A stretch of DNA of 64,000 nucleotides from an uncultured bacterium (GTDB taxonomy: Bacteria; Patescibacteriota; JAHJAL01), in the NCBI GenBank assembly GCA_938004065.1, contig CALKWM010000041.1:26889-90888 (forward strand), written 5' to 3'. A program made the translations under genes and the position numbers. The notes beneath the pieces were generated by a model. It did not search any database. It was given only the letters and a program-made list of their open reading frames with translations, and had not been told where the DNA came from. Each line of letters opens with the position of its first letter. The first letter of the stretch is position 1. Below, piece after piece: positions 1,339-64,000 of the stretch.

Positions 1339-1660
1339 ATAATTACATTCAATATTTCACTTTCTTGCATATTGCTTATTGCATATTGCATATTGGTTAT
1401 TGATACTTTCTTGCTTCTTGCTTCTTGCTTATTGCATATTGGACATTGATCCTTTCTTCTTGATTCTTGTTTCTTTCTTCTTGATTCTTTATTCATTGGA
1501 TATTGGACATTGTTCCTTGCTACTTTCACTTGGATATTGGATATTGGTTATTGATACTTTCTTGCTTCTTGCTTATTGTTTATTGCATATTGGATATTTT
1601 TCATTCACTTGGATATTGATCCTTGATACTTTTTCCCTGCATATTCTTACCTAAAATATT
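1339..1660. repeat. Degenerate heptanucleotide tandem array of about 45 units with consensus near (A/T)TATTGC / TCTTGCT / TTGATAC. It lies between alaS and the ftsA-like gene.
   Basis: Direct reading shows 7-nt periodicity: cttgcat attgctt attgcat attgcat attggtt attgata ctttctt gcttctt … The track ORF 1379..1654 is an artefact of this repeat. Confidence 0.8.
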
Positions 1661-1717
1661 TTTGCTATAATAAAGATTGGATATAATCTTTTATTTTAAA
1701 TTTACATATTTATCGAT

Positions 1718-2969: not shown

Positions 2970-4478
2970 ATGAGCAAAACAATTTTTCTCCAACCGGAGG
3001 ACAAATCACCAGAAGCGATCAAAAAAATCAATCACACCAAATCAAAAAGTATTGATCTGGCTATCCCGGAAACATCGGCAATCTTTAACGAAAAAGAGTT
3101 AAAAAATCTTTTTGAGTTTATCTCGAAAAAAAATATCAGCATAACTCTAATCTCCAATGACAATACCGGTCTGCAAATTGCTCAAAAAATCGGTTTACCG
3201 ATCAAATCAACCAATCCCCAAGTCACTATCAACTCCAAACCGTCCAACAAAATCAAAATCATCTACAAAAAAGGCAAGTCAAAAACAAAAGACATAGTAG
3301 TGAAAAAAAATACCAACACTTCACCCCAAAAGAAAGAGAAAGAAGTCAAAAAAGTCAAACCCAGTTTTTTAAGCCAACTTCTCTTTGGTTTTTTAACAAT
3401 TCTCAGTATCATCGTTATTATCACTGTTTTCCTAATCATCGTACCTACTACCAAAATTAGCATTACCACTCAGGTTGATAGTATTCCGGTGAATTATAGT
3501 TTCACGCTCGACACCGAACAGAAAAACGTTGATTTTATCAATGGTGTTATTCCGTCTCAATCCATAACTATTGATGAAGAACTAACTCAAGAATCCCGTG
3601 CTACCGGCGAAAAAAACGATGGCACTCCGGCATCAGGCACTATCACAGTTTACAATCAATCTCAGTCCGAATTACCGCTGGTTGGCAATACACGATTTTT
3701 GTCCACCGGCGGAGTTTTGTTTCGATCGACCAATGCCGTCAATGTTCCGGCCGGTGGCAGTGCCAATGTCACAGTAGTGGCTGATGAGGCCGGCAGTCAA
3801 GGCAATATTAGCCCGAGCAAATTTACTCTTCCCGCCCTTCCTGATTCCGGTTCTTATTTTTACGGTCAGTCATCCGCCAACATGACCGGAGGTGCGGACA
3901 ATATTATTTATTATCTATCAGACACGGATATCCATTACTCAACGGACGAAATTCGTCAAAGTCTATACAATATGGCCATTAATGATCTGATCAACAAACT
4001 CCCTGCCGGTCGTAAATACATTTCTCCCGACATACAAGACATTCAGATTGAAACCTCCACCGATGCCAAAGTCGGAGATCAAGTTGATACTTTCAATATC
4101 AAAGCCAAAACAACCGTTACTTTCATCGTTTACGATGACAAAGATCTCACTCAATTAACCACAAACAATCTCTCCAAACAGATTTCCAAAGAAAGAGTTT
4201 TTGTATCAAACGGTATTGACGATATGTCGGTTACGGTCAAAGAAATTGATGTTAATGATGGATTTGCCAAGCTCGATATCTCCACCAATGCTTTGAGTGC
4301 ACCACTATACAATACCGATATTATCAAGAGCGAAATATCCGGCAAATCCAAAGAACAAGTCAAGGAATATTTCCTCCAATATCCGGAAATTCAACAAATC
4401 GATATCGAATTCTGGCCGGATTGGGTTAAACGCGTTAGTAACATACCTTCCCGCATCTATATCGACATAGTCTGGTAA
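2970..4478 (+). CDS. Hypothetical bitopic membrane protein. It has a ~130-aa cytoplasmic N-domain, a Lys-rich linker, one TM helix and a ~330-aa extracytoplasmic domain.
   Basis: The ORF is 502 aa. The hydrophobic segment LLFGFLTILSIIVIITVFLIIV follows a KKGKSKTKDIVVKK linker. No family was recognised. Confidence 0.5.
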   Translation: MSKTIFLQPEDKSPEAIKKINHTKSKSIDLAIPETSAIFNEKELKNLFEFISKKNISITLISNDNTGLQIAQKIGLPIKSTNPQVTINSKPSNKIKIIYKKGKSKTKDIVVKKNTNTSPQKKEKEVKKVKPSFLSQLLFGFLTILSIIVIITVFLIIVPTTKISITTQVDSIPVNYSFTLDTEQKNVDFINGVIPSQSITIDEELTQESRATGEKNDGTPASGTITVYNQSQSELPLVGNTRFLSTGGVLFRSTNAVNVPAGGSANVTVVADEAGSQGNISPSKFTLPALPDSGSYFYGQSSANMTGGADNIIYYLSDTDIHYSTDEIRQSLYNMAINDLINKLPAGRKYISPDIQDIQIETSTDAKVGDQVDTFNIKAKTTVTFIVYDDKDLTQLTTNNLSKQISKERVFVSNGIDDMSVTVKEIDVNDGFAKLDISTNALSAPLYNTDIIKSEISGKSKEQVKEYFLQYPEIQQIDIEFWPDWVKRVSNIPSRIYIDIVW

Positions 4479-5961: not shown

Positions 5962-6070
5962 TTTATATCCGATACATTTTTAATTCAAAAAATTTTGTTG
6001 ATAATTATTCATAATTTTTCCCGTTTGAAAAGTTTGAATATGTTTGAACAAGTTTGCTAAGTTTATTATA

Positions 6071-7120
6071 ATGCTTTCCAATTTTCTCGGACTATTTTCG
6101 CATGATATCGGCATTGATTTGGGTACTGCCAATACCCTGGTTTTTGTTCGTGGCAAAGGGATTATCATCAACGAACCATCTGTTGTTGCCATCAACAATC
6201 GTACCAACCAGATACTGGCCATTGGGCAAGAAGCCAAAAGAATGGTTGGACGCACTCCCGGACACATAGTTGCTACCAGACCGTTGATTGATGGTGTCGT
6301 TTCAGACTTTGAAATCACTGAACAGATGCTCCGTTACTTTATCGAAAAAGTCCATCGCGAAACATTTACCATCCTGCCTCGTCCTCGCGTTGTTATCGGT
6401 GTACCGTACGGAGTTACCGAAGTTGAAAAAAGGGCCGCCCAAGAAGCTGCCATCAACGCCGGCGCACGCGAAGTTTACTTGATAGAAGAACCAATGGCCG
6501 CCGCTATCGGTGCCAGATTGCCTGTCCAGGAAGCCACCGGTTGTATGATTGTCGATATCGGTGGTGGTACCAGTGAAATCGCCGTTATCTCCCTCGGAGG
6601 TATAGTTGTGTCCAAATCATTACGTATTGCCGGTGATGAATTAAACCAAGACATCATCAACTATGCCCGCGATAAATTCAATCTGCTTATCGGTGAAAGA
6701 ACGGCTGAGGAAATCAAAATACAGATAGGCAACGTTTTCCATCATACTGAGGTTGAAGAGTATATCATGCGTGGCCGTGACCTGGTTACCGGCTTACCCA
6801 AAGCGATAACGGTAAATTCCAAAGAAATTCAGGAAGCTCTCTCCAAATCCATTACACACATTGTCGATTCCATTAATTACATCATCGAAGAAACTCCCCC
6901 CGAACTTCTGGCCGACATTATGCAACGTGGCATATGGTTGGCCGGTGGCGGAGCTTTATTGACCGGCCTAGATCAGCTCATCGCTAAAACAACATCGATT
7001 CCAACCCATGTTGTTGACGATCCGTTAACCGCTGTCTCGCGTGGCACCGGTTATGTTCTCGAAGAACTCGAACAATTAAAATCGGTATTGGTGGATACCG
7101 ATATTAGTCCTAGTCTGTAA
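6071..7120 (+). CDS. mreB: Rod-shape protein MreB. Start chosen at the ATG that aligns with the E. coli MreB N-terminus; the track ORF begins 27 nt earlier at 6044.
   Basis: MLSNFLGLFSHDIGIDLGTANTLVFVRGKGIIINEPSVVAI, DIGGGTSEIAVIS and GIWLAGGGALLTGLD. Confidence 0.92.
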   Translation: MLSNFLGLFSHDIGIDLGTANTLVFVRGKGIIINEPSVVAINNRTNQILAIGQEAKRMVGRTPGHIVATRPLIDGVVSDFEITEQMLRYFIEKVHRETFTILPRPRVVIGVPYGVTEVEKRAAQEAAINAGAREVYLIEEPMAAAIGARLPVQEATGCMIVDIGGGTSEIAVISLGGIVVSKSLRIAGDELNQDIINYARDKFNLLIGERTAEEIKIQIGNVFHHTEVEEYIMRGRDLVTGLPKAITVNSKEIQEALSKSITHIVDSINYIIEETPPELLADIMQRGIWLAGGGALLTGLDQLIAKTTSIPTHVVDDPLTAVSRGTGYVLEELEQLKSVLVDTDISPSL

Positions 7121-9994: not shown

Positions 9995-10145
9995 GTCATC
10001 CTTAAACCTGATCCGCCTTGCCTGCCCGCCTTGGGTGGGGGCGGACAAGCGATTCAGGATCTCCAAATCTCGAATCCAAAGCGTCATCGTATTTGTTTGA
10101 GTCTTGTCCGCCGAAGTTTTTAGGAGGCAGGGGGATCCAGAAAAA
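9995..10145. repeat. GC-rich structured intergenic element, family 2 copy 1. It has nested hairpins around ccttgcctgcccgccttgggtgggggcgg and an inverted pair ggcggacaag … cttgtccgcc.
   Basis: GC-rich island directly after the recG stop in an otherwise AT-rich genome. It shares a 24-nt core with 13755-13860 and the submotif cttgtccgSCgaa with family 1. Confidence 0.6.
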
Positions 10146-10201
10146 AATTTCTTTTTTTTAAAAACTTTTTACTTCAATATGTTTAATATGTTTGATATTT
10201 G

Positions 10202-10337
10202 ATGAGTAGTGCTAATTAATTTTCTTATCTGTCATCCTCGAGTCGAAAGCGAGGGACGAGCGATTAGACAACTTGTCCGGCGAATGCTGGATCGGGGATC
10301 CATACCATATTTCTTATTTTTATTTAGCACTACTCAT
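10202..10337. mobile_element. MITE-like palindromic element, family 1 copy A. Terminal inverted repeats atgagtagtgctaa … ttagcactactcat flank a GC-rich core (ctgtcatcctcgagtcgaaagcg … aacttgtccggcgaatgctggatcggggatcca).
   Basis: Perfect 14-nt TIRs were read directly. Two more copies sit at 20460-20572 and 60541-60730. The element is non-coding and intergenic. Confidence 0.65.
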
Positions 10338-10405
10338 TATTTGATATGTTTGATAAGTTTTACTTAAGTTTTTATTAAACATTTCTTAATCTCTAAATTA
10401 TTATC

Positions 10406-10954
10406 ATGAGAGTATCTGCCGGAAAATTCAAAGGACGAAACCTCCACTTTCCCAGAAACATCCGCCCATCCTCCCAGCTTCACAAAAAAGTAATCTTTGA
10501 TACCATTCGACCCTTCCTCACTAATTCCACTTTTTTGGATCTCTACGCCGGTAGTGGCCAAATCGGTATTGAAGCGTTATCACAAGGAGCGCTTCGCATA
10601 ACTTTTGTTGAAAAAAACAAACTCAGCATCAAATCCGTCACCTCAAATCTACAAAATTGTTCGATAGAAAACAAATATTACCAAATCATTCACTCCAACG
10701 TTTCATCTTTTTTATCCAAAACTGATGAGCAATTTGACATAATCTTCGCCGACCCGCCATACCTAAACGTGAACTGGCATGATTTCGAACAAATCTCAAA
10801 ACTGATGACACTAGGCAGTATTTTTATCCTAAAATACTCACCTAAAAATCCGCCTCCCGATTTCCCCGGACTTACCGTCTTCAAAACAAAAGACTTCCAA
10901 GACACCAACCTAAAATTTTATCGAGTATCAAGTTCTAATTTCTGTGACTTGTAA
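10406..10954 (+). CDS. rsmD: 16S rRNA (guanine966-N2)-methyltransferase RsmD
   Basis: RPSSQLHKKVIFDTI, LDLYAGSGQIGIEALSQGA and IIFADPPY are RsmD-family SAM-methyltransferase motifs. Confidence 0.85.
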   Translation: MRVSAGKFKGRNLHFPRNIRPSSQLHKKVIFDTIRPFLTNSTFLDLYAGSGQIGIEALSQGALRITFVEKNKLSIKSVTSNLQNCSIENKYYQIIHSNVSSFLSKTDEQFDIIFADPPYLNVNWHDFEQISKLMTLGSIFILKYSPKNPPPDFPGLTVFKTKDFQDTNLKFYRVSSSNFCDL

Positions 10955-11014
10955 CTTGATACTTCACAACCTGATCTGTAATTGCTCAATTATTAATTTA
11001 GCTTACATATAAAA

Positions 11015-13754: not shown

Positions 13755-13860
13755 TACGGGCGACCCTTGCCTGTCCGCCTTGGGTGGGCGGTCGCCCTCG
13801 TGCTTTTATAGCGGACCCTTTACTTGCCCGCCGATGAGGCGGGCGGTCGACTAAAAAGAA
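13755..13860. repeat. GC-rich structured element, family 2 copy 2. It carries nested stem-loops gggcgacc…ggtcgccc and gcccgcc…ggcgggc.
   Basis: It shares ccttgcctgYccgccttgggtggg with 9995-10145 and lies directly after the rmuC stop. Confidence 0.6.
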
Positions 13861-18554: not shown

Positions 18555-18661
18555 TCGTCCCAAGATCATCGAGGGACACCACACTTGGATATTGATACTT
18601 GAAACTTGATACTTTCTAAACTAATAAATATTTCTCAATAAATATAATATCTTTTACCACC

Positions 18662-19636: not shown

Positions 19637-19822
19637 AAATATCACAATGGAAATAAAAATCAAAATCAGTAAAAGTTCTATCAAAAGACTGCAACTTACT
19701 TTGGCCAGTATCGTATTATGTACAATATTATTTCTTTTCTAAAAACATTATCAATAATTTAACCATTTAACAATTTATCAATATTCATTTTTTTACAATA
19801 TTTCAATAAAACAAATATCATC

Positions 19823-20459: not shown

Positions 20460-20572
20460 ATGAGTAGTGCTAATTAATTTTTTTATCTGTCATCCTCGAA
20501 TCGAAAGCCATTTTATGGCGCTTCGATATCGGGGATCCATGCCATATTTTTTATTTTTATTTAGCACTACTT
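20460..20572. mobile_element. MITE-like palindromic element, family 1 copy B, a shorter variant. TIRs are tgagtagtgctaa … ttagcactactta.
   Basis: Same TIRs and the same cores (ctgtcatcctcgaatcgaaagc, atcggggatccatgccatat) as copy A, with an internal deletion. It sits between the LOG-like gene and the giant ORF. Confidence 0.65.
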
Positions 20573-20588
20573 ATAAATATATATTTTC

Positions 20589-29711: not shown

Positions 29712-30063
29712 CGAGCAATTTTCAAGTTCTAAGTTTTAAGTATCAAGTAAAACACAATACATAAAGCACAATATCTCAATATTTCAATATCTAATTTTTA
29801 TTCAAATGAAAACAAAAATCAAAAACATCAAGCATGCACAGATGATGACAATTATGCTCATCTCCATCTTCACCATCCTGCTCAACAATCTGGGCAACAT
29901 GTATTAAACTCTATAATATTTACCAAAAAATTTATTAACAAAAACAAAAATGAAAAAAATTCTGTCCTTTCTAGCCAATTTATTTGACAACAACGGCATG
30001 TCGATGATTTGCAAAAAAGAACTTGGATTCACAATCCGCAAAGTAAAATAATTCTTTACTTCC

Positions 30064-30841: not shown

Positions 30842-32203
30842 CTACTTCCCAAACGACACTCTATCACCAATCTCCTCCGTCCACCCATGCCAACTACCCC
30901 TCGAAACCGTAAACTCTCCATATCGATCATTGATTTTATCCATTGATTCAATCAAACGGATTTTTTTCAATTTATCCTCCAATATCGACAACTGCACTTT
31001 GGCGCTTGATTCCAACCCGGACACACTAACAAAAATTTTACTGATCTTGTCATGCAAAACCTTTCTCTCCAGATGTTTATAAACCCCTCGGAAAATATCC
31101 CAACTGTCATCCGTTGCCTCGGCAATTTTCTCCTGTCGGCCAAATCCACCACCATACAGATACTGCCAACCCACCCACAAAACCTTTGCCCGCAATTTCT
31201 TCCGCCGCAATCTGCGTCCCGTTTTCTCCGCCATCTTCATCATCAGCATTGCAATCTCATCTTTGTTAGCCGTTTTTTTAAGTAAGGTATAGGAGTGTCC
31301 TACCGACTTTGGCTTGCGATCTTCATCGATATTCAATTTATCCACCTCCAAACCATTCATCCTAGACCACAAGAAATATCCCATTTTACCCATTTTTTTG
31401 AGTAAAAAAGAGGGCTTGGCATATTTGATTTCCAAGGGAGTAACTATCCCCAAAGCATTGAGTTGCCTCTTTAAGCCCCAGGAAATTCCCCAAACATCAG
31501 TTAGTTCCAGCTCGCCCAACAGATAATCCACATTTTGATCATTTACCAAAGTCAAACCATCCGGCTTCTTAAAATCCGACCCCAATTTGGCAAAAAATTT
31601 AGTCCCGGCAATCCCAATCGAACAAGTCAACCAATCTCCCACTTCCTCTCTTATTCTTCTCTTAATCTCCCCAGCAATCACCTCCACCTCATCATACAAA
31701 TCCCCAACACGCTTATTGTCATCCCCACCTTGTGCAGGGATCTCAACCGCTCTATTCCATTTATTTTCTTTATCAGCTTTGAGTTGTGGTTTTGCACTTT
31801 GAGTTTTGCACTTTGAGTTTTTTCTCGTTTGGAATTTCAAAAAACTCTCATCAATACTATAATTCTCCACGTCCGGCGTATAACTATTGAATATCGCCTG
31901 AATCCTTTCCGTAATTACTCGGTACTTGGTCGGATCGTCTCGCACTAACACAATATCCGGACAAATTTGTTTGGCCTCCCACACTTTGGTTCCGGTACCA
32001 ATACCGATAGTTTTTGCCTCTCGACTGGCCGCGATTATCGTGCCTTTCGGATGCAAATAACTACACACTCCCAATGGCCGTCCCCGCCAGGCCGGATTGG
32101 CTTGCTGTTCACAAGTGGCAAAATAACTATTCATATCCACATGCATGATTATTTTCTCACTCTGAGGCATTTCAAATAAATCATTATTTTCTTGTTTAAA
32201 CAT
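30842..32203 (-). CDS. dinB: Y-family DNA polymerase (DinB/Pol IV-like) carrying an in-frame low-complexity insertion
   Basis: IIMHVDMNSYFATCEQ, GTIIAASREAK, DESFL and LTCSIGIAGTKFFAKLGSDFKKPDGL. A ~45-aa insert after DESFLKF is encoded by repeat DNA at 31780-31835. Confidence 0.8.
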   Translation of the reverse strand: MFKQENNDLFEMPQSEKIIMHVDMNSYFATCEQQANPAWRGRPLGVCSYLHPKGTIIAASREAKTIGIGTGTKVWEAKQICPDIVLVRDDPTKYRVITERIQAIFNSYTPDVENYSIDESFLKFQTRKNSKCKTQSAKPQLKADKENKWNRAVEIPAQGGDDNKRVGDLYDEVEVIAGEIKRRIREEVGDWLTCSIGIAGTKFFAKLGSDFKKPDGLTLVNDQNVDYLLGELELTDVWGISWGLKRQLNALGIVTPLEIKYAKPSFLLKKMGKMGYFLWSRMNGLEVDKLNIDEDRKPKSVGHSYTLLKKTANKDEIAMLMMKMAEKTGRRLRRKKLRAKVLWVGWQYLYGGGFGRQEKIAEATDDSWDIFRGVYKHLERKVLHDKISKIFVSVSGLESSAKVQLSILEDKLKKIRLIESMDKINDRYGEFTVSRGSWHGWTEEIGDRVSFGK

Positions 32204-33514: not shown

Positions 33515-33641
33515 AATTGTGTTACGCACCGGATTTGTTAAAAACATATCCGGTCTTTTTATTTATAAAACCACTTTCTCTAAAGTATAATAAAAATAAG
33601 AAGTTTTCTTACTTCTTGCTTCTTACTTCTTACTCCTTATA

Positions 33642-34865: not shown

Positions 34866-34940
34866 CCAAGCATCAAGTTCTAATTTCTAATTTTCAAGCC
34901 GTTTTATTTTTTTTGATTTTTTATATTTTATTTTCGATTT

Positions 34941-59338: not shown

Positions 59339-59577
59339 ATATCTCTCCTTTAAGTTAGTTATACAAATAAATACAAAATAACTTACACTACCAGAGCTTT
59401 AAAAATGCTAAATTGTTAAATTGATATATTGTTATTTTTCAACAATTTGACCATTTAACAATTCTTTATTCTTAAGTCTTTATTCTTGCGTCTTAACTTA
59501 AACCATTTAGCAATTTGACCATATTCATTTATTTTTTGCATTCCATTATTTGTAATTTAAAATTTGGTATTTCAATA

Positions 59578-60372: not shown

Positions 60373-60540
60373 GATTAAAAAAATATCTTAAATTAATTAT
60401 AAAATAAGTTACACACTACGTAAATATGAAAAAGACAATATTCAATATACAATATACAATAAGCAAGAATTAAGAAAAATAATAAAAAACATCTATAATT
60501 CTTAATTTAAGTAGCGCTACATAAAAATTAGAAATATACG

Positions 60541-60730
60541 ACTTGTGTGAAATCAATTCTTCTCCTGTCATCCTCGAATCGGAAGCGTTATCGCGATCCG
60601 ATAACTTGTCCGGCGAACCTGTCCGGCGAATGCCCGGATGCGGGATCGGGGATCCAGATATCTTATATTTGTTTTTTAATTCACACAACTCGTTAATATG
60701 TGATACGAATCCCCAATCCCGCATACAAAA
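60541..60730. mobile_element. MITE-like palindromic element, family 1 copy C, a longer variant. Imperfect TIRs (acttgtgtgaaat … aattcacacaact) and an internal long inverted pair gcgggatcggggatcc / gaatccccaatcccgc.
   Basis: It shares ctgtcatcctcgaatcggaagcg, aacttgtccggcgaa (here tandemly duplicated) and ggatcggggatcca with copies A and B. It lies between the SPFH and U32 genes. Confidence 0.6.
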
Positions 60731-61959: not shown

Positions 61960-62059
61960 AATACTTTATTAATAATATCTTGATCAATTCTAACATTTTT
62001 AAAATAAAAATACTTTTCCTACCCCATAGACAAAAAAAGACATCCACATAGAATCTCTT

Positions 62060-62160
62060 TGCTTATTGTTTATTGCTTATTGTTTATTGCTTATTGCTTA
62101 TTGTTTATTGTGTATTGCTTATTGTGTATTGTTTATTGTGTATTGTTTATTGCTTAATAC
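62060..62160. repeat. Near-perfect heptanucleotide tandem array, (TTATTGY)x14. It lies between the M23-peptidase stop and the U32-peptidase start, both on the - strand, where it reads (RCAATAA)n.
   Basis: Direct reading: ttgcttattgtttattgcttattgtttattgcttattgcttattgtttattgtgtattgcttattgtgtattgtttattgtgtattgtttattgctt. It generates the artefactual track ORFs 62066..62248 and 62073..62351. Confidence 0.85.
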
Positions 62161-63359
62161 GGCAAAGCAATATCCAAAAACAAATGCGGATTTACACTAT
62201 TTCCAAACGCATCATTTATCTCAAAATGCAAATGTGGACCGGTTGTAAAATACCCCGCCCCTCTCGTGCCAGGCGCACCACCGGAAAGTCCGATTGCCTC
62301 ACCACGCGACACGTATTGACCATTGGAAACAAAAATCTCACTCATATGTAAATACTTGGTTAAATAGCCGTTTCCATGTTGAATCGCAATGTAACTAAGT
62401 CCGGAATTGCCGGAATCATACGCCACCACCACCACACCACTGGCTGCAGCATACACCGGTGTACCTTGACCGGCCGCTAAATCAATCCCGGTATGTGGGA
62501 ACCCGAAACCATAATACGGATCCATATAATCACCACCAACCACACTAACTCTATTGAACCCCGCCAAAGGATAACCGAAACCATCACCACCGGATAAATT
62601 TGGATATTCAATTTCCAGTTTTTTTCTGGCTTCCTCGATCAATCTGTCAATCTCCGATGAAACGGATTGTTCTTCGGCAACCGCATCCGCTAGCTGTCTT
62701 TGAAACTCCTCTTCCTCTCCCTTGGTTTGTTCCAGCAACAAATTTTTGGCATCCTTTTGACTCTGAAGTGCGGATTGTTCTTCTTCCTTTCTCGACAACA
62801 AATCTTCCAACTCATCTTTCTCTCCGTTCAACTGCACTCTTTGCGCTTCCAAATTACTCTTAATTTTATTTATTTCCGTTATTGTTATCCTCACCTGCTC
62901 CTTGACCGCTTCTACATATGTTACTTGTTTAACAAAATCGGAAAAATTTTGCGAGGACAGCAAAATCATCACCACATTTTGTTCACGTTGTTCATACAAC
63001 ATCTGTAAACTCTCATCGAGAATCACTTTTTGATAATCAAGCATCCTCTGCTGTCTGGCAATTTCATTTGTCAATACATCAATCCTGTCTTGCTTTTCAG
63101 TAATCTGATACTCTGTATCTTTTATCTGCAATCCCAACTGTTCAATTTTTGCATCAAAAATTGCAATCTGATTTTCCAGATTGACAGACTCATTTTTCTT
63201 TTGTTCAACCAATTTATTTATCTCATCCATCCGATTTTGGATCTCTTCTCTTTGTTGTTTCAAATCATTGACACTTTGGGCATGCAAAAAACCACCACTT
63301 ACCAAAATCAGTGCCAATATCATAACTATACAAATTCTATTCCAAATGCTCTTCATCAA
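62154..63359 (-). CDS. M23 (LytM) metallopeptidase with an N-terminal signal/anchor and a long coiled-coil; EnvC-like partner of FtsX
   Basis: The coiled-coil occupies the N-terminal two-thirds. M23 motifs HTGIDLAAGQGTPVYAAASG and GPHLHFEI. The gene is directly downstream of ftsX. Confidence 0.85.
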   Translation of the reverse strand: MMKSIWNRICIVMILALILVSGGFLHAQSVNDLKQQREEIQNRMDEINKLVEQKKNESVNLENQIAIFDAKIEQLGLQIKDTEYQITEKQDRIDVLTNEIARQQRMLDYQKVILDESLQMLYEQREQNVVMILLSSQNFSDFVKQVTYVEAVKEQVRITITEINKIKSNLEAQRVQLNGEKDELEDLLSRKEEEQSALQSQKDAKNLLLEQTKGEEEEFQRQLADAVAEEQSVSSEIDRLIEEARKKLEIEYPNLSGGDGFGYPLAGFNRVSVVGGDYMDPYYGFGFPHTGIDLAAGQGTPVYAAASGVVVVAYDSGNSGLSYIAIQHGNGYLTKYLHMSEIFVSNGQYVSRGEAIGLSGGAPGTRGAGYFTTGPHLHFEINDAFGNSVNPHLFLDIALPY

Positions 63360-63463
63360 AAACCATTATCCAATGAATTAAAAAAAATATACAATAAGCA
63401 ACAAACAATATACATCAATGAGTAGTGCAAAATAAAAACTTGAAACTTGCTACTTGATACTTA

Positions 63464-64000
63464 TCATTTAAGGTGTTTTCTAATCGCCACAAACGCACTT
63501 GCTACACTGATAGTAACACCAAGCAATATTTGAAACGCCAAAACAAATAGCAAATATTGGGCAACAAAATCGTTGAAAAAACCTCCTGAAAGACCGAGAT
63601 AAGACTGAGCGATCAAAGACACATAATACCCGATTGCTGTCACAAATATAGTCGATAAAATCGCCGCCAACAAGCCATACAAACCGCTTTCTATCAAAAA
63701 CGGCGCATGCACAAACCAATCCGTCGCCCCCACCAATTTCATAATCTCAATCTCATCCTTACGCGAAAATATTGCAATTCTAACCGTGCTAAACACCACC
63801 GATACGGCAATTATTATAAATATCAAACCAATCAATATTCCCGCTTTTTGCACAAAATCAATTACACCGATCAATTTTACAATTACCGCTCTATTTCTGG
63901 AATAACTACTGGAATATATCATATCTTTGTAATCATCTCTTTCAACCACTTGACTTACTTTGTCCAAATCACTGGTATTTTTGGTCTTTACCACCAAACT
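63464..64000 (-). CDS. ftsX: Cell-division ABC permease FtsX, 3' portion. The gene start lies beyond the window end.
   Basis: Four-TM permease C-terminus (IIAVSVVFSTVRIAIFSRKDEIEIMKLVGATDWFVHAPFLIESGLYG). The ORF has no in-window start. Confidence 0.8.
   Translation of the reverse strand, partial: SLVVKTKNTSDLDKVSQVVERDDYKDMIYSSSYSRNRAVIVKLIGVIDFVQKAGILIGLIFIIIAVSVVFSTVRIAIFSRKDEIEIMKLVGATDWFVHAPFLIESGLYGLLAAILSTIFVTAIGYYVSLIAQSYLGLSGGFFNDFVAQYLLFVLAFQILLGVTISVASAFVAIRKHLK

Follow-up and report, generated by a model that had tools for sequence, protein, structure and literature searches.

Tandemly repeated heptanucleotides are the most abundant class of long simple-sequence repeats (LSSRs) in many prokaryotes. 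They occur mostly in intergenic DNA, and slippage of the polymerase has been suggested as their origin (Mrazek 2007, summarised in PMC4679880 and PMC4692102). The class includes the cyanobacterial STRR elements, GGGAATC in Xanthomonas, GGGGAYT in Nostoc and TAACTGA in Beggiatoaceae (PMC4679880, PMC4692102). Since the cyanobacterial STRR elements, such families have been an oddity of some bacterial genomes. The TAACTGA repeats of Beggiatoaceae, Cyanobacteria and Bacteroidetes consist of one fixed heptamer, present mostly in 2-6 copies and only a few nucleotides from start codons, at many intergenic loci beside functionally unrelated genes (PMC4679880). In Haemophilus influenzae a 7-nt tract, (ATCTTTC)n, is situated upstream of hmw1A and hmw2A, and slippage changes the number of its units (PMC12721329, PMC8262952). 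The hmw repeats control adhesins, are perfect, with a natural minimum of 11 units, and are transcribed in the 5' leader, where they form a hairpin with a G-rich arm that is cleaved by RNase III (PMC12721329). The zot-ctxA spacer of Vibrio cholerae is filled from the upstream stop codon to the -35 element by 3-8 perfect TTTTGAT heptads, which precede the core promoter, are bound by H-NS, ToxR and ToxT, and vary in copy number from strain to strain (10.1101/2021.05.14.444153). Full-text literature searches returned no paper that joins heptamer or tandem intergenic repeats with Patescibacteria or the Candidate Phyla Radiation.

The window considered here is the whole 64-kb (64,000-nucleotide) stretch of DNA that was analysed. 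It is AT-rich (~37% G+C), and about 10% of it is non-coding. The same sequence is present in the MAG GCA_036848155.1 (a 171-kb contig) and in ENA and Logan assemblies. An array of about 320 bp, built of units related to TTATTGC, TCTTGCT and TTGATAC, had been described in the spacer between alaS and ftsA. This array (array 1; Table 1) was confirmed. It contains 38 units in phase, and its neighbors were assigned by Pfam as AlaS (PF01411, PF07973) and FtsA (PF14450). All three unit types are found in it, the first two being rotations of TTGCTTA and CTTGCTT, respectively. The first three positions of the unit, TTG, have an information content of 1.8, 2.0 and 1.3 bits, and the fourth has 0.08 bits. 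When the array is read in register, the phase is broken at five places by TTTC, A, TTTCAC, TTTC and TTCAC. The units are arranged in a recurring higher-order block of ~46 nt with the order TTTC-(TTGCTTC)n-TTGCTTA-TTGCATA-TTGGATA-TTGATAC. Perfect period 7 is maintained over at most 23 nt in array 1 and at most 20 nt in array 2. No terminator-like hairpin was found between alaS and array 1. The last unit of the array, the degenerate TTCTTAC, overlaps the predicted -35 element of ftsA. The open reading frame that had been taken for the repeat read in one frame does exist; neither of the two public annotations has a gene in the spacer, and the frame was rejected as coding, being a stop-free reading of a T-rich repeat.

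The second, cleaner array of 14 units that the original prediction placed upstream of a U32 peptidase gene (PF01136) was also found (array 2). Both neighboring genes are encoded on the minus strand, where the units of the array are of the GCAATAA type. Its terminal unit, the last on the plus strand, contains the TAA codon at which the M23 peptidase gene ends. The array is separated by 100 nt from the U32 start codon, and ~60 nt lie between its end and the predicted U32 promoter. A third long array of the same unit family is positioned just beyond window position 64000. It directly follows the stop codon of an RF-1 family gene and precedes, by ~45 nt, a TGCTATAAT element upstream of ftsE. Arrays 1 and 2 have opposite orientations relative to transcription.

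Table 1. Coordinates of the heptamer arrays, the dispersed tracts and other features of the window; positions on other contigs are marked with the contig.
Feature	Coordinates	Strand	Units or motif	Location and remarks
Array 1 spacer	1339-1717			between alaS 3' end and ftsA
Array 1	1359-1650	+	38 degenerate heptamers, consensus TTG-N-W-T-M	starts 21 nt after alaS stop
Array 1, read in register	1365-1650	+	38 units	five short phase breaks
Array 1, Tandem Repeats Finder, period 7	1365-1441		11.4 copies, 79% matches
Array 1, Tandem Repeats Finder, period 7	1446-1494, 1530-1553, 1562-1598
Array 1, Tandem Repeats Finder, 46-nt higher-order period	1359-1598		4.9 copies
ORF within array 1	1379-1654			rejected as coding
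Predicted extended -10 of ftsA	1663-1671	+	TGCTATAAT	motif only; ftsA start codon 1718
Gene directly 3' of ftsA	2970-4478			502-aa protein, weak Baseplate_J-like match (E = 3e-7); neighbor kept in L005
GTTTGAWAA repeats	6023-6064		10-nt period	immediately upstream of mreB; L005 counterpart 6320-6370
GC-rich repeat	10016-10039, 13765-13788		CCTTGCCTG[CT]CCGCCTTGGGTGGG	two long spacers
9-nt tandem repeats	10176-10198, 10340-10360		AATATGTTT and TTTGATAAG	on both sides of MITE-like element
MITE-like element	10203-10340, 20461-20575		GAGTAGTGCTAA...TTAGCACTACTC	terminal inverted repeats
MITE-like core, further copies	60560-60650; L005 1890-1945; L141 ~3640-3720		TGTCATCCTCGA..TCGAAAGC..GGGGATCC	GC-rich
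Inverted pair	10920-10964	+	GTATCAAGT-N20-ACTTGATAC	spans stop codon of RsmD-like methyltransferase gene, just upstream of ComEA-like gene; family tract part 10947-10964
Family tract	18582-18617	+	CAC-TTGGATA-TTGATAC-TTGAAAC-TTGATAC-TTTC	92% identical to 1606-1631; transketolase subunit-pfkB kinase spacer, just upstream of TATAAT
Second dispersed motif	19748-19793, 59401-59433, 59436-59481, 59488-59533		AACCATTTAACAATTT	intergenic
Family tract	29720-29750	-	ACTTGAT-ACTTAAA-ACTTAGA-ACTTGAA	just 3' of stop of 3040-aa gene
Intragenic run	31789-31821		perfect 14-nt repeat GTTTTGCACTTTGA x2.4, TTG phased at 7 nt	in ORF of minus-strand Y-family (IMS/DinB-like) DNA polymerase
Family tract	33605-33641	+	TTCTTAC/TTCTTGC, 5 units	89% identical to 1407-1433; 3' of a TATAAT, probably in leader of LytS-type histidine kinase gene (ATG 33684)
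Family tract	34866-34900	-	TCTAATT units (CAAG-type on +)	directly 3' of histidine kinase stop codon
Family tract	59461-59500	+	ATTCTTT-type, 3.9 copies	Band_7-GAPDH spacer
Family tract	60437-60477	-		88% complementary to 1558-1598, block order kept; upstream of Band_7 promoter region
Start codon of U32 peptidase gene	61959	-
Predicted extended -10 of U32 peptidase gene	61987-61995	-	TGTTAGAAT	motif only
Array 2	62055-62158	+	14 units TTG[CT][TG]TA	M23-U32 spacer
Array 2, Tandem Repeats Finder, period 7	62059-62156		14.0 copies, 84% matches
Stop codon of M23 peptidase gene	62154-62156	-	TAA	within array 2
Family tract	63385-63412	-	TTGTTTG-TTGCTTA-TTGTATA, TTG-phased	26 nt upstream of M23 peptidase start
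Family tract	63437-63462	+	ACTTGAA-ACTTGCT-ACTTGAT	directly 3' of ftsX stop codon
Third array	L141 8114-8165 (contig DAIUKQ010000003.1)		GCAATAT/GCAATAA x7	just beyond window position 64000

The repetition is specific for seven nucleotides. When lags 5-11 were scanned across the window, strong self-similarity appeared at lag 7 alone and was confined to 1365-1586 and 62048-62162. A census of tandem segments at lags 6-13, with a threshold of at least 4 copies at 80% or more, identified 11 segments at lag 7. They total 439 nt, all within the 6.5 kb of intergenic DNA of the window, and the family makes up about 7% of its non-coding DNA. The census found no segments at lags 6 and 8-13 and no lag-7 segment in coding DNA. 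Every spacer was also read and repeat searches were made, which showed that arrays 1 and 2 belong to a dispersed family with about nine shorter tracts in the window and the third array past its right end. In total the family comprises ~12 tracts in ~82 kb, positioned in both orientations and having TTGCWTA- or TTGATAC-type units in common. The genes beside the tracts are mixed: alaS, ftsA, transketolase, pfkB kinase, the LytS/LytTR pair, Band_7, GAPDH, ftsX and both peptidases.

Only one intragenic TTG-phased run of at least three units was found in the window (in the DNA polymerase gene of Table 1). The motif TTGATACTT occurs 12 times in the 64 kb, with 8 of the occurrences intergenic; it was considered as a DNA-uptake sequence and rejected as too sparse and too clustered in tandem. 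A strand rule, by which stop-proximal tracts would be mostly CAA-type in the sense direction and start-proximal tracts TTG-type, is broken by array 1 and by the arm at 10955.

The arrays and tracts are probably members of a genome-wide heptanucleotide LSSR family, similar to the STRR elements, which was made and remodelled by slippage or unequal recombination. Every defining feature of LSSRs that can be tested here is present in the Patescibacteria family: units of 7 nt are arranged head to tail, are restricted to non-coding DNA, occupy many dispersed loci and are polymorphic between close relatives (in one variant contig). As in LSSR and STRR families, tandem 7-nt units are over-represented compared to other periods, a single unit family is found in the genome, and both length and sequence vary between close relatives (PMC4692102, PMC4679880). 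The units described here are AT-rich with a TTG core and not G-rich like the GGGAATC and GGGGAYT units, so that they allow no G-quadruplex. The host is also different, being a member of the Patescibacteria, the units are more degenerate, and they form the ~46-nt higher-order blocks. The TAACTGA repeats are likewise an intergenic heptamer family with many loci beside unrelated genes, but the units are variable here and usually lie 40-200 nt from start codons.

If the family originated in this way, replication slippage, together with unequal recombination or gene conversion among units and among blocks, would create and remodel the arrays. A loop of 7 nt is not a multiple of three and would survive only outside genes, which would explain why the heptamers are intergenic only. 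Larger arrays would be expected to change faster than short ones. The arrays would have been inserted between the stop codon of the upstream gene and the core promoter of the downstream gene, leaving the promoter intact. Because they sit between a stop codon and an intact core promoter, the likeliest effect of an array would be a quantitative change in the promoter-upstream context and not an on/off switch. The arrays may well be near-neutral.

Counted in favor of the slippage family are the specificity of the period, the intergenic restriction, the unrelated units in relatives, the duplication of blocks, the dispersed copies, the absence of the array from orthologous spacers, the remodelling seen in a close strain, the lack of RNA structure and the opposite orientations. 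Other features count against it. Decay is not uniform across the unit, as TTG is kept and position 4 is free, and the changes in the variant strain spare TTG. This unevenness fits constraint, although block duplication confounds the count. The specific order of the ~46-nt block recurs at unlinked loci on both strands, at least five tracts end near a predicted -35/-10, and a streamlined genome retains a 290-nt array.

The consensus assemblies ERZ724098, ERZ724101, SRR6007444, SRR6007447 and GCA_036848155.1 are identical to the window across the arrays and tracts that each covers, and look-ups of the pfkB and Band_7 genes for further strain variants returned only identical strains. A variant of array 1 was found in one Logan contig (L003, from SRR32844786). 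This contig encodes an identical FtsA protein, and 1223 of the 1224 bases of ftsA are the same (99.9%). The identity continues over 79 nt upstream of the ftsA start codon, through the leader and the promoter with its TGCTATAAT element, back to about position 1639. The differences begin directly before the predicted -35, where L003 has one extra TTTCTTC unit (a 7-nt insertion) and lacks ~100 nt (~15 units). It also has at least five substitutions in ~95 nt of the array, none of which is in a TTG core. The evidence comes from a single short-read contig that begins inside array 1. Assembly could therefore account for how much sequence is missing, but not for the novel substitutions. At array 2, a contig from a sister sample (L013) has one substitution in the first 38 nt compared to four in the other 2254 nt, and the short tracts between ftsX and the M23 peptidase gene have not changed.

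These data bear on the idea that the arrays are contingency loci, in which high-frequency slippage switches or grades the expression of ftsA and the peptidase gene in the manner of the hmw1A tract. The original prediction had proposed slipped-strand phase variation and a comparison of unit number between strains. It was right in that the heptamer arrays upstream of genes are genuine and that unit number differs in L003; hmw likewise has a 7-nt unit, and both the number and the sequence of the array 1 units differ in a strain whose ftsA is 99.9% identical. However, the same-study assemblies, which come from several samples, have an identical consensus, and classical phase variation is very unlikely. 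In these degenerate repeats, perfect period-7 runs do not exceed 23 nt, compared to at least 11 perfect units in hmw. From the promoter motifs, array 1 is predicted to lie upstream of the promoter and not in a transcribed leader or in a -35/-10 spacer. The hairpin with a G-rich arm that hmw needs is not predicted for the arrays, and the flanking genes are essential housekeeping genes and not surface factors. None of the other properties of the hmw tract, namely perfect leader-transcribed repeats, RNase III cleavage and adhesin control, was seen here.

More distant relatives were compared at the alaS-ftsA locus. A scan of genome contigs provided one locus, labelled Patescibacteria group bacterium, in which FtsA is 46% identical and the alaS-ftsA order is kept. 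A protein search added two relatives with 57-59% FtsA identity. A metagenome scan returned only relatives with 22-23% FtsA identity, in which heptamer tracts are absent. No counterpart of array 1 is present in the alaS-ftsA spacers of the three relatives compared. The promoter element of ftsA is TGCTATAAT in two of them (L004 and L005) and TGATATAAT in the third. In L004 the spacer is only ~50 nt long, and the alaS stop codon overlaps TGCTATAAT itself. The spacer of L005 (59% FtsA identity) is 167 nt long and holds a different, GC-rich element. L005 does have heptamers elsewhere: tracts of TTTTACT and ATTCGTA precede alaS, and one of ATTTATC follows yceG. Lag 7 is again the sole tandem period found. 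Another relative, L006 (57% FtsA identity), has AAACTAT x4 in the ftsA leader. Judged from the sequences compared, the heptamer period is a trait of the lineage and the unit sequence is not. TTG-phased heptamer arrays with unrelated units were found to be common elsewhere in a scan of viral contigs. Many IMG/VR loci on viral contigs of 4-6 kb, among them L022, L023, L027 and L029, contain degenerate TTGNNGC x8-13 with five fixed and two free positions, and these may be a distinct element.

A layout in which a stop codon is followed by heptads, a core promoter and a gene is shared by array 1, array 2, the third array and the tracts at 18582 and 60437, the promoters being predicted from motifs. 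The distance between a tract end and a predicted -35/-10 is ~10-80 nt in at least five cases. Other tracts directly follow stop codons or lie in a leader and are not promoter-upstream. The array units themselves were considered as sigma-70 -35 hexamers and rejected, as a promoter scan gave fewer sites than in shuffled sequence.

By its layout, the closest functional analog of these loci would be the zot-ctxA spacer of Vibrio cholerae. The sequence TTGAT is also found in some units here (TTGATTC, TTGATAC). The ctx heptads are 3-8 perfect units with known binders, whereas the arrays have 14-38 degenerate units and the target is a housekeeping gene. Heptads are also the operators and parS sites of plasmid pSM19035, where 7-bp units that share a conserved core follow one another without gaps, in direct or inverted orientation, upstream of promoters. 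The omega protein, a ribbon-helix-helix protein, reads WATCACW heptads (7-10 units) of this plasmid, which carries the cognate omega gene. Neither an omega gene nor the WATCACW motif was found here, and the array consensus TTG-N-W-T-M has no whole-unit match to WATCACW or TTTTGAT, only the TTGAT shared by some units.

A DNA-binding or nucleoid-associated protein might polymerize on the TTG-phased heptads upstream of core promoters, and the length of the array would then tune transcription or insulate the promoter from read-through. The contiguous 7-bp units do have a conserved core beside a predicted promoter, with TTG at a fixed phase and position 4 free. The order of stop codon, heptads and core promoter is the same as in zot-ctxA (10.1101/2021.05.14.444153), one block is dispersed to several promoters, and omega is a precedent for a protein that binds heptads. 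This explanation is nevertheless unlikely. The analysis produced no candidate for the binding protein, relatives have other unit sequences (TTTTACT, ATTCGTA, ATTTATC, AAACTAT), and 38 units far exceed the 3-10 of known operators. Furthermore, the orientation relative to the promoter is inconstant, several tracts are placed directly after stop codons or in a leader, and the promoters are motif predictions. A more specific version, which is rather improbable, is that the heptads form a lattice for a lineage-specific DNA-binding protein coating promoter-upstream spacers, with array length, reset by slippage, acting as a heritable rheostat. If true, the protein-read lattice would be a rheostat for ftsA, ftsE/X and the M23 and U32 peptidase genes, and a chromosomal housekeeping counterpart of the ctxAB and omega heptad systems in the Candidate Phyla Radiation.

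A role at the RNA level was also considered, in which the tracts would act as unstructured U-rich or CA-rich RNA in 3' or 5' UTRs that binds S1, cold-shock proteins or Rho. The predicted fold of array 1 RNA is not more stable than those of shuffled controls (z = -0.12), and a search of Rfam identified only tRNA-Leu and no family for the arrays; a structured RNA or a known RNA family was therefore rejected. Folds of four tract-bearing spacers likewise did not surpass those of shuffled controls, and z values of +1.29 and +1.85 mark folds worse than in the controls, as would suit an unstructured RNA. Among the family tracts, only the inverted pair at 10920-10964 folds significantly (z = -2.9). 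Since there is no terminator between alaS and the array, read-through transcripts would include array 1. The tract at 33605 is between a TATAAT and a start codon, the AAACTAT units of L006 are in a leader, and a role in RNA has been proposed for the Beggiatoaceae TAACTGA repeats (PMC4679880). However, arrays 1 and 2 would be transcribed into unrelated RNAs (UUGCAUA and GCAAUAA), and their opposite orientation argues against a strand-specific role. Most tracts are also 40-200 nt from start codons, not adjacent to them as in Beggiatoaceae. An RNA function is thus highly improbable.

Two structural roles named in the original prediction, intrinsically bent DNA and iterons, are suggested by the AT-rich, periodic sequence and by a weak 21-nt super-period that Tandem Repeats Finder reports in array 2. 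Curvature was calculated with a wedge model. The arrays have a mean of 11-12 degrees and a maximum of 22 degrees, compared to a window mean of 18 degrees, a 95th percentile of 37 degrees and 79 degrees for a phased A-tract control. The arrays are thus predicted to be straighter than the average of the window, and units spaced 7 bp apart do not stay in phase with the helix. Replication iterons have units of 17-22 bp, an adjacent rep or dnaA gene and an AT-rich unwinding element. The unit here is 7 nt, there is no rep gene among the annotated neighbors, and neither a DnaA-box cluster nor a skew inversion was seen nearby. Both roles are extremely improbable. The GC skew of the plus strand is negative throughout window positions 1-64000 (-0.04 to -0.40), whatever strand the genes occupy, which suggests that the skew is strong and linked to replication and that neither an origin nor a terminus lies in the window.

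The slippage family therefore remains the preferred explanation. Its presence in a reduced Patescibacteria genome shows that large free-living genomes are not the only ones with such repeats. The locus is a compact system for study, with three arrays directly upstream of predicted extended -10 promoters, division and envelope genes as neighbors, and at least one natural length variant. It is suited to asking whether such arrays are neutral products of slippage or quantitative modifiers of promoters. The arrays also break short-read assemblies and could be used as strain markers.

Several other repeats are present in the window (Table 1). A MITE-like element with terminal inverted repeats and a GC-rich core has two copies, and its core occurs separately at a third position as well as in L005 and L141. 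The core copy of L005 fills the alaS-ftsA spacer, where the window has array 1. The repeat CCTTGCCTG[CT]CCGCCTTGGGTGGG is GC-rich in an otherwise AT-rich genome. A second dispersed intergenic motif, AACCATTTAACAATTT, has direct and inverted copies. The GTTTGAWAA repeats upstream of mreB, unlike the heptamer arrays, are kept in position and sequence in L005, which makes them a candidate regulatory site.
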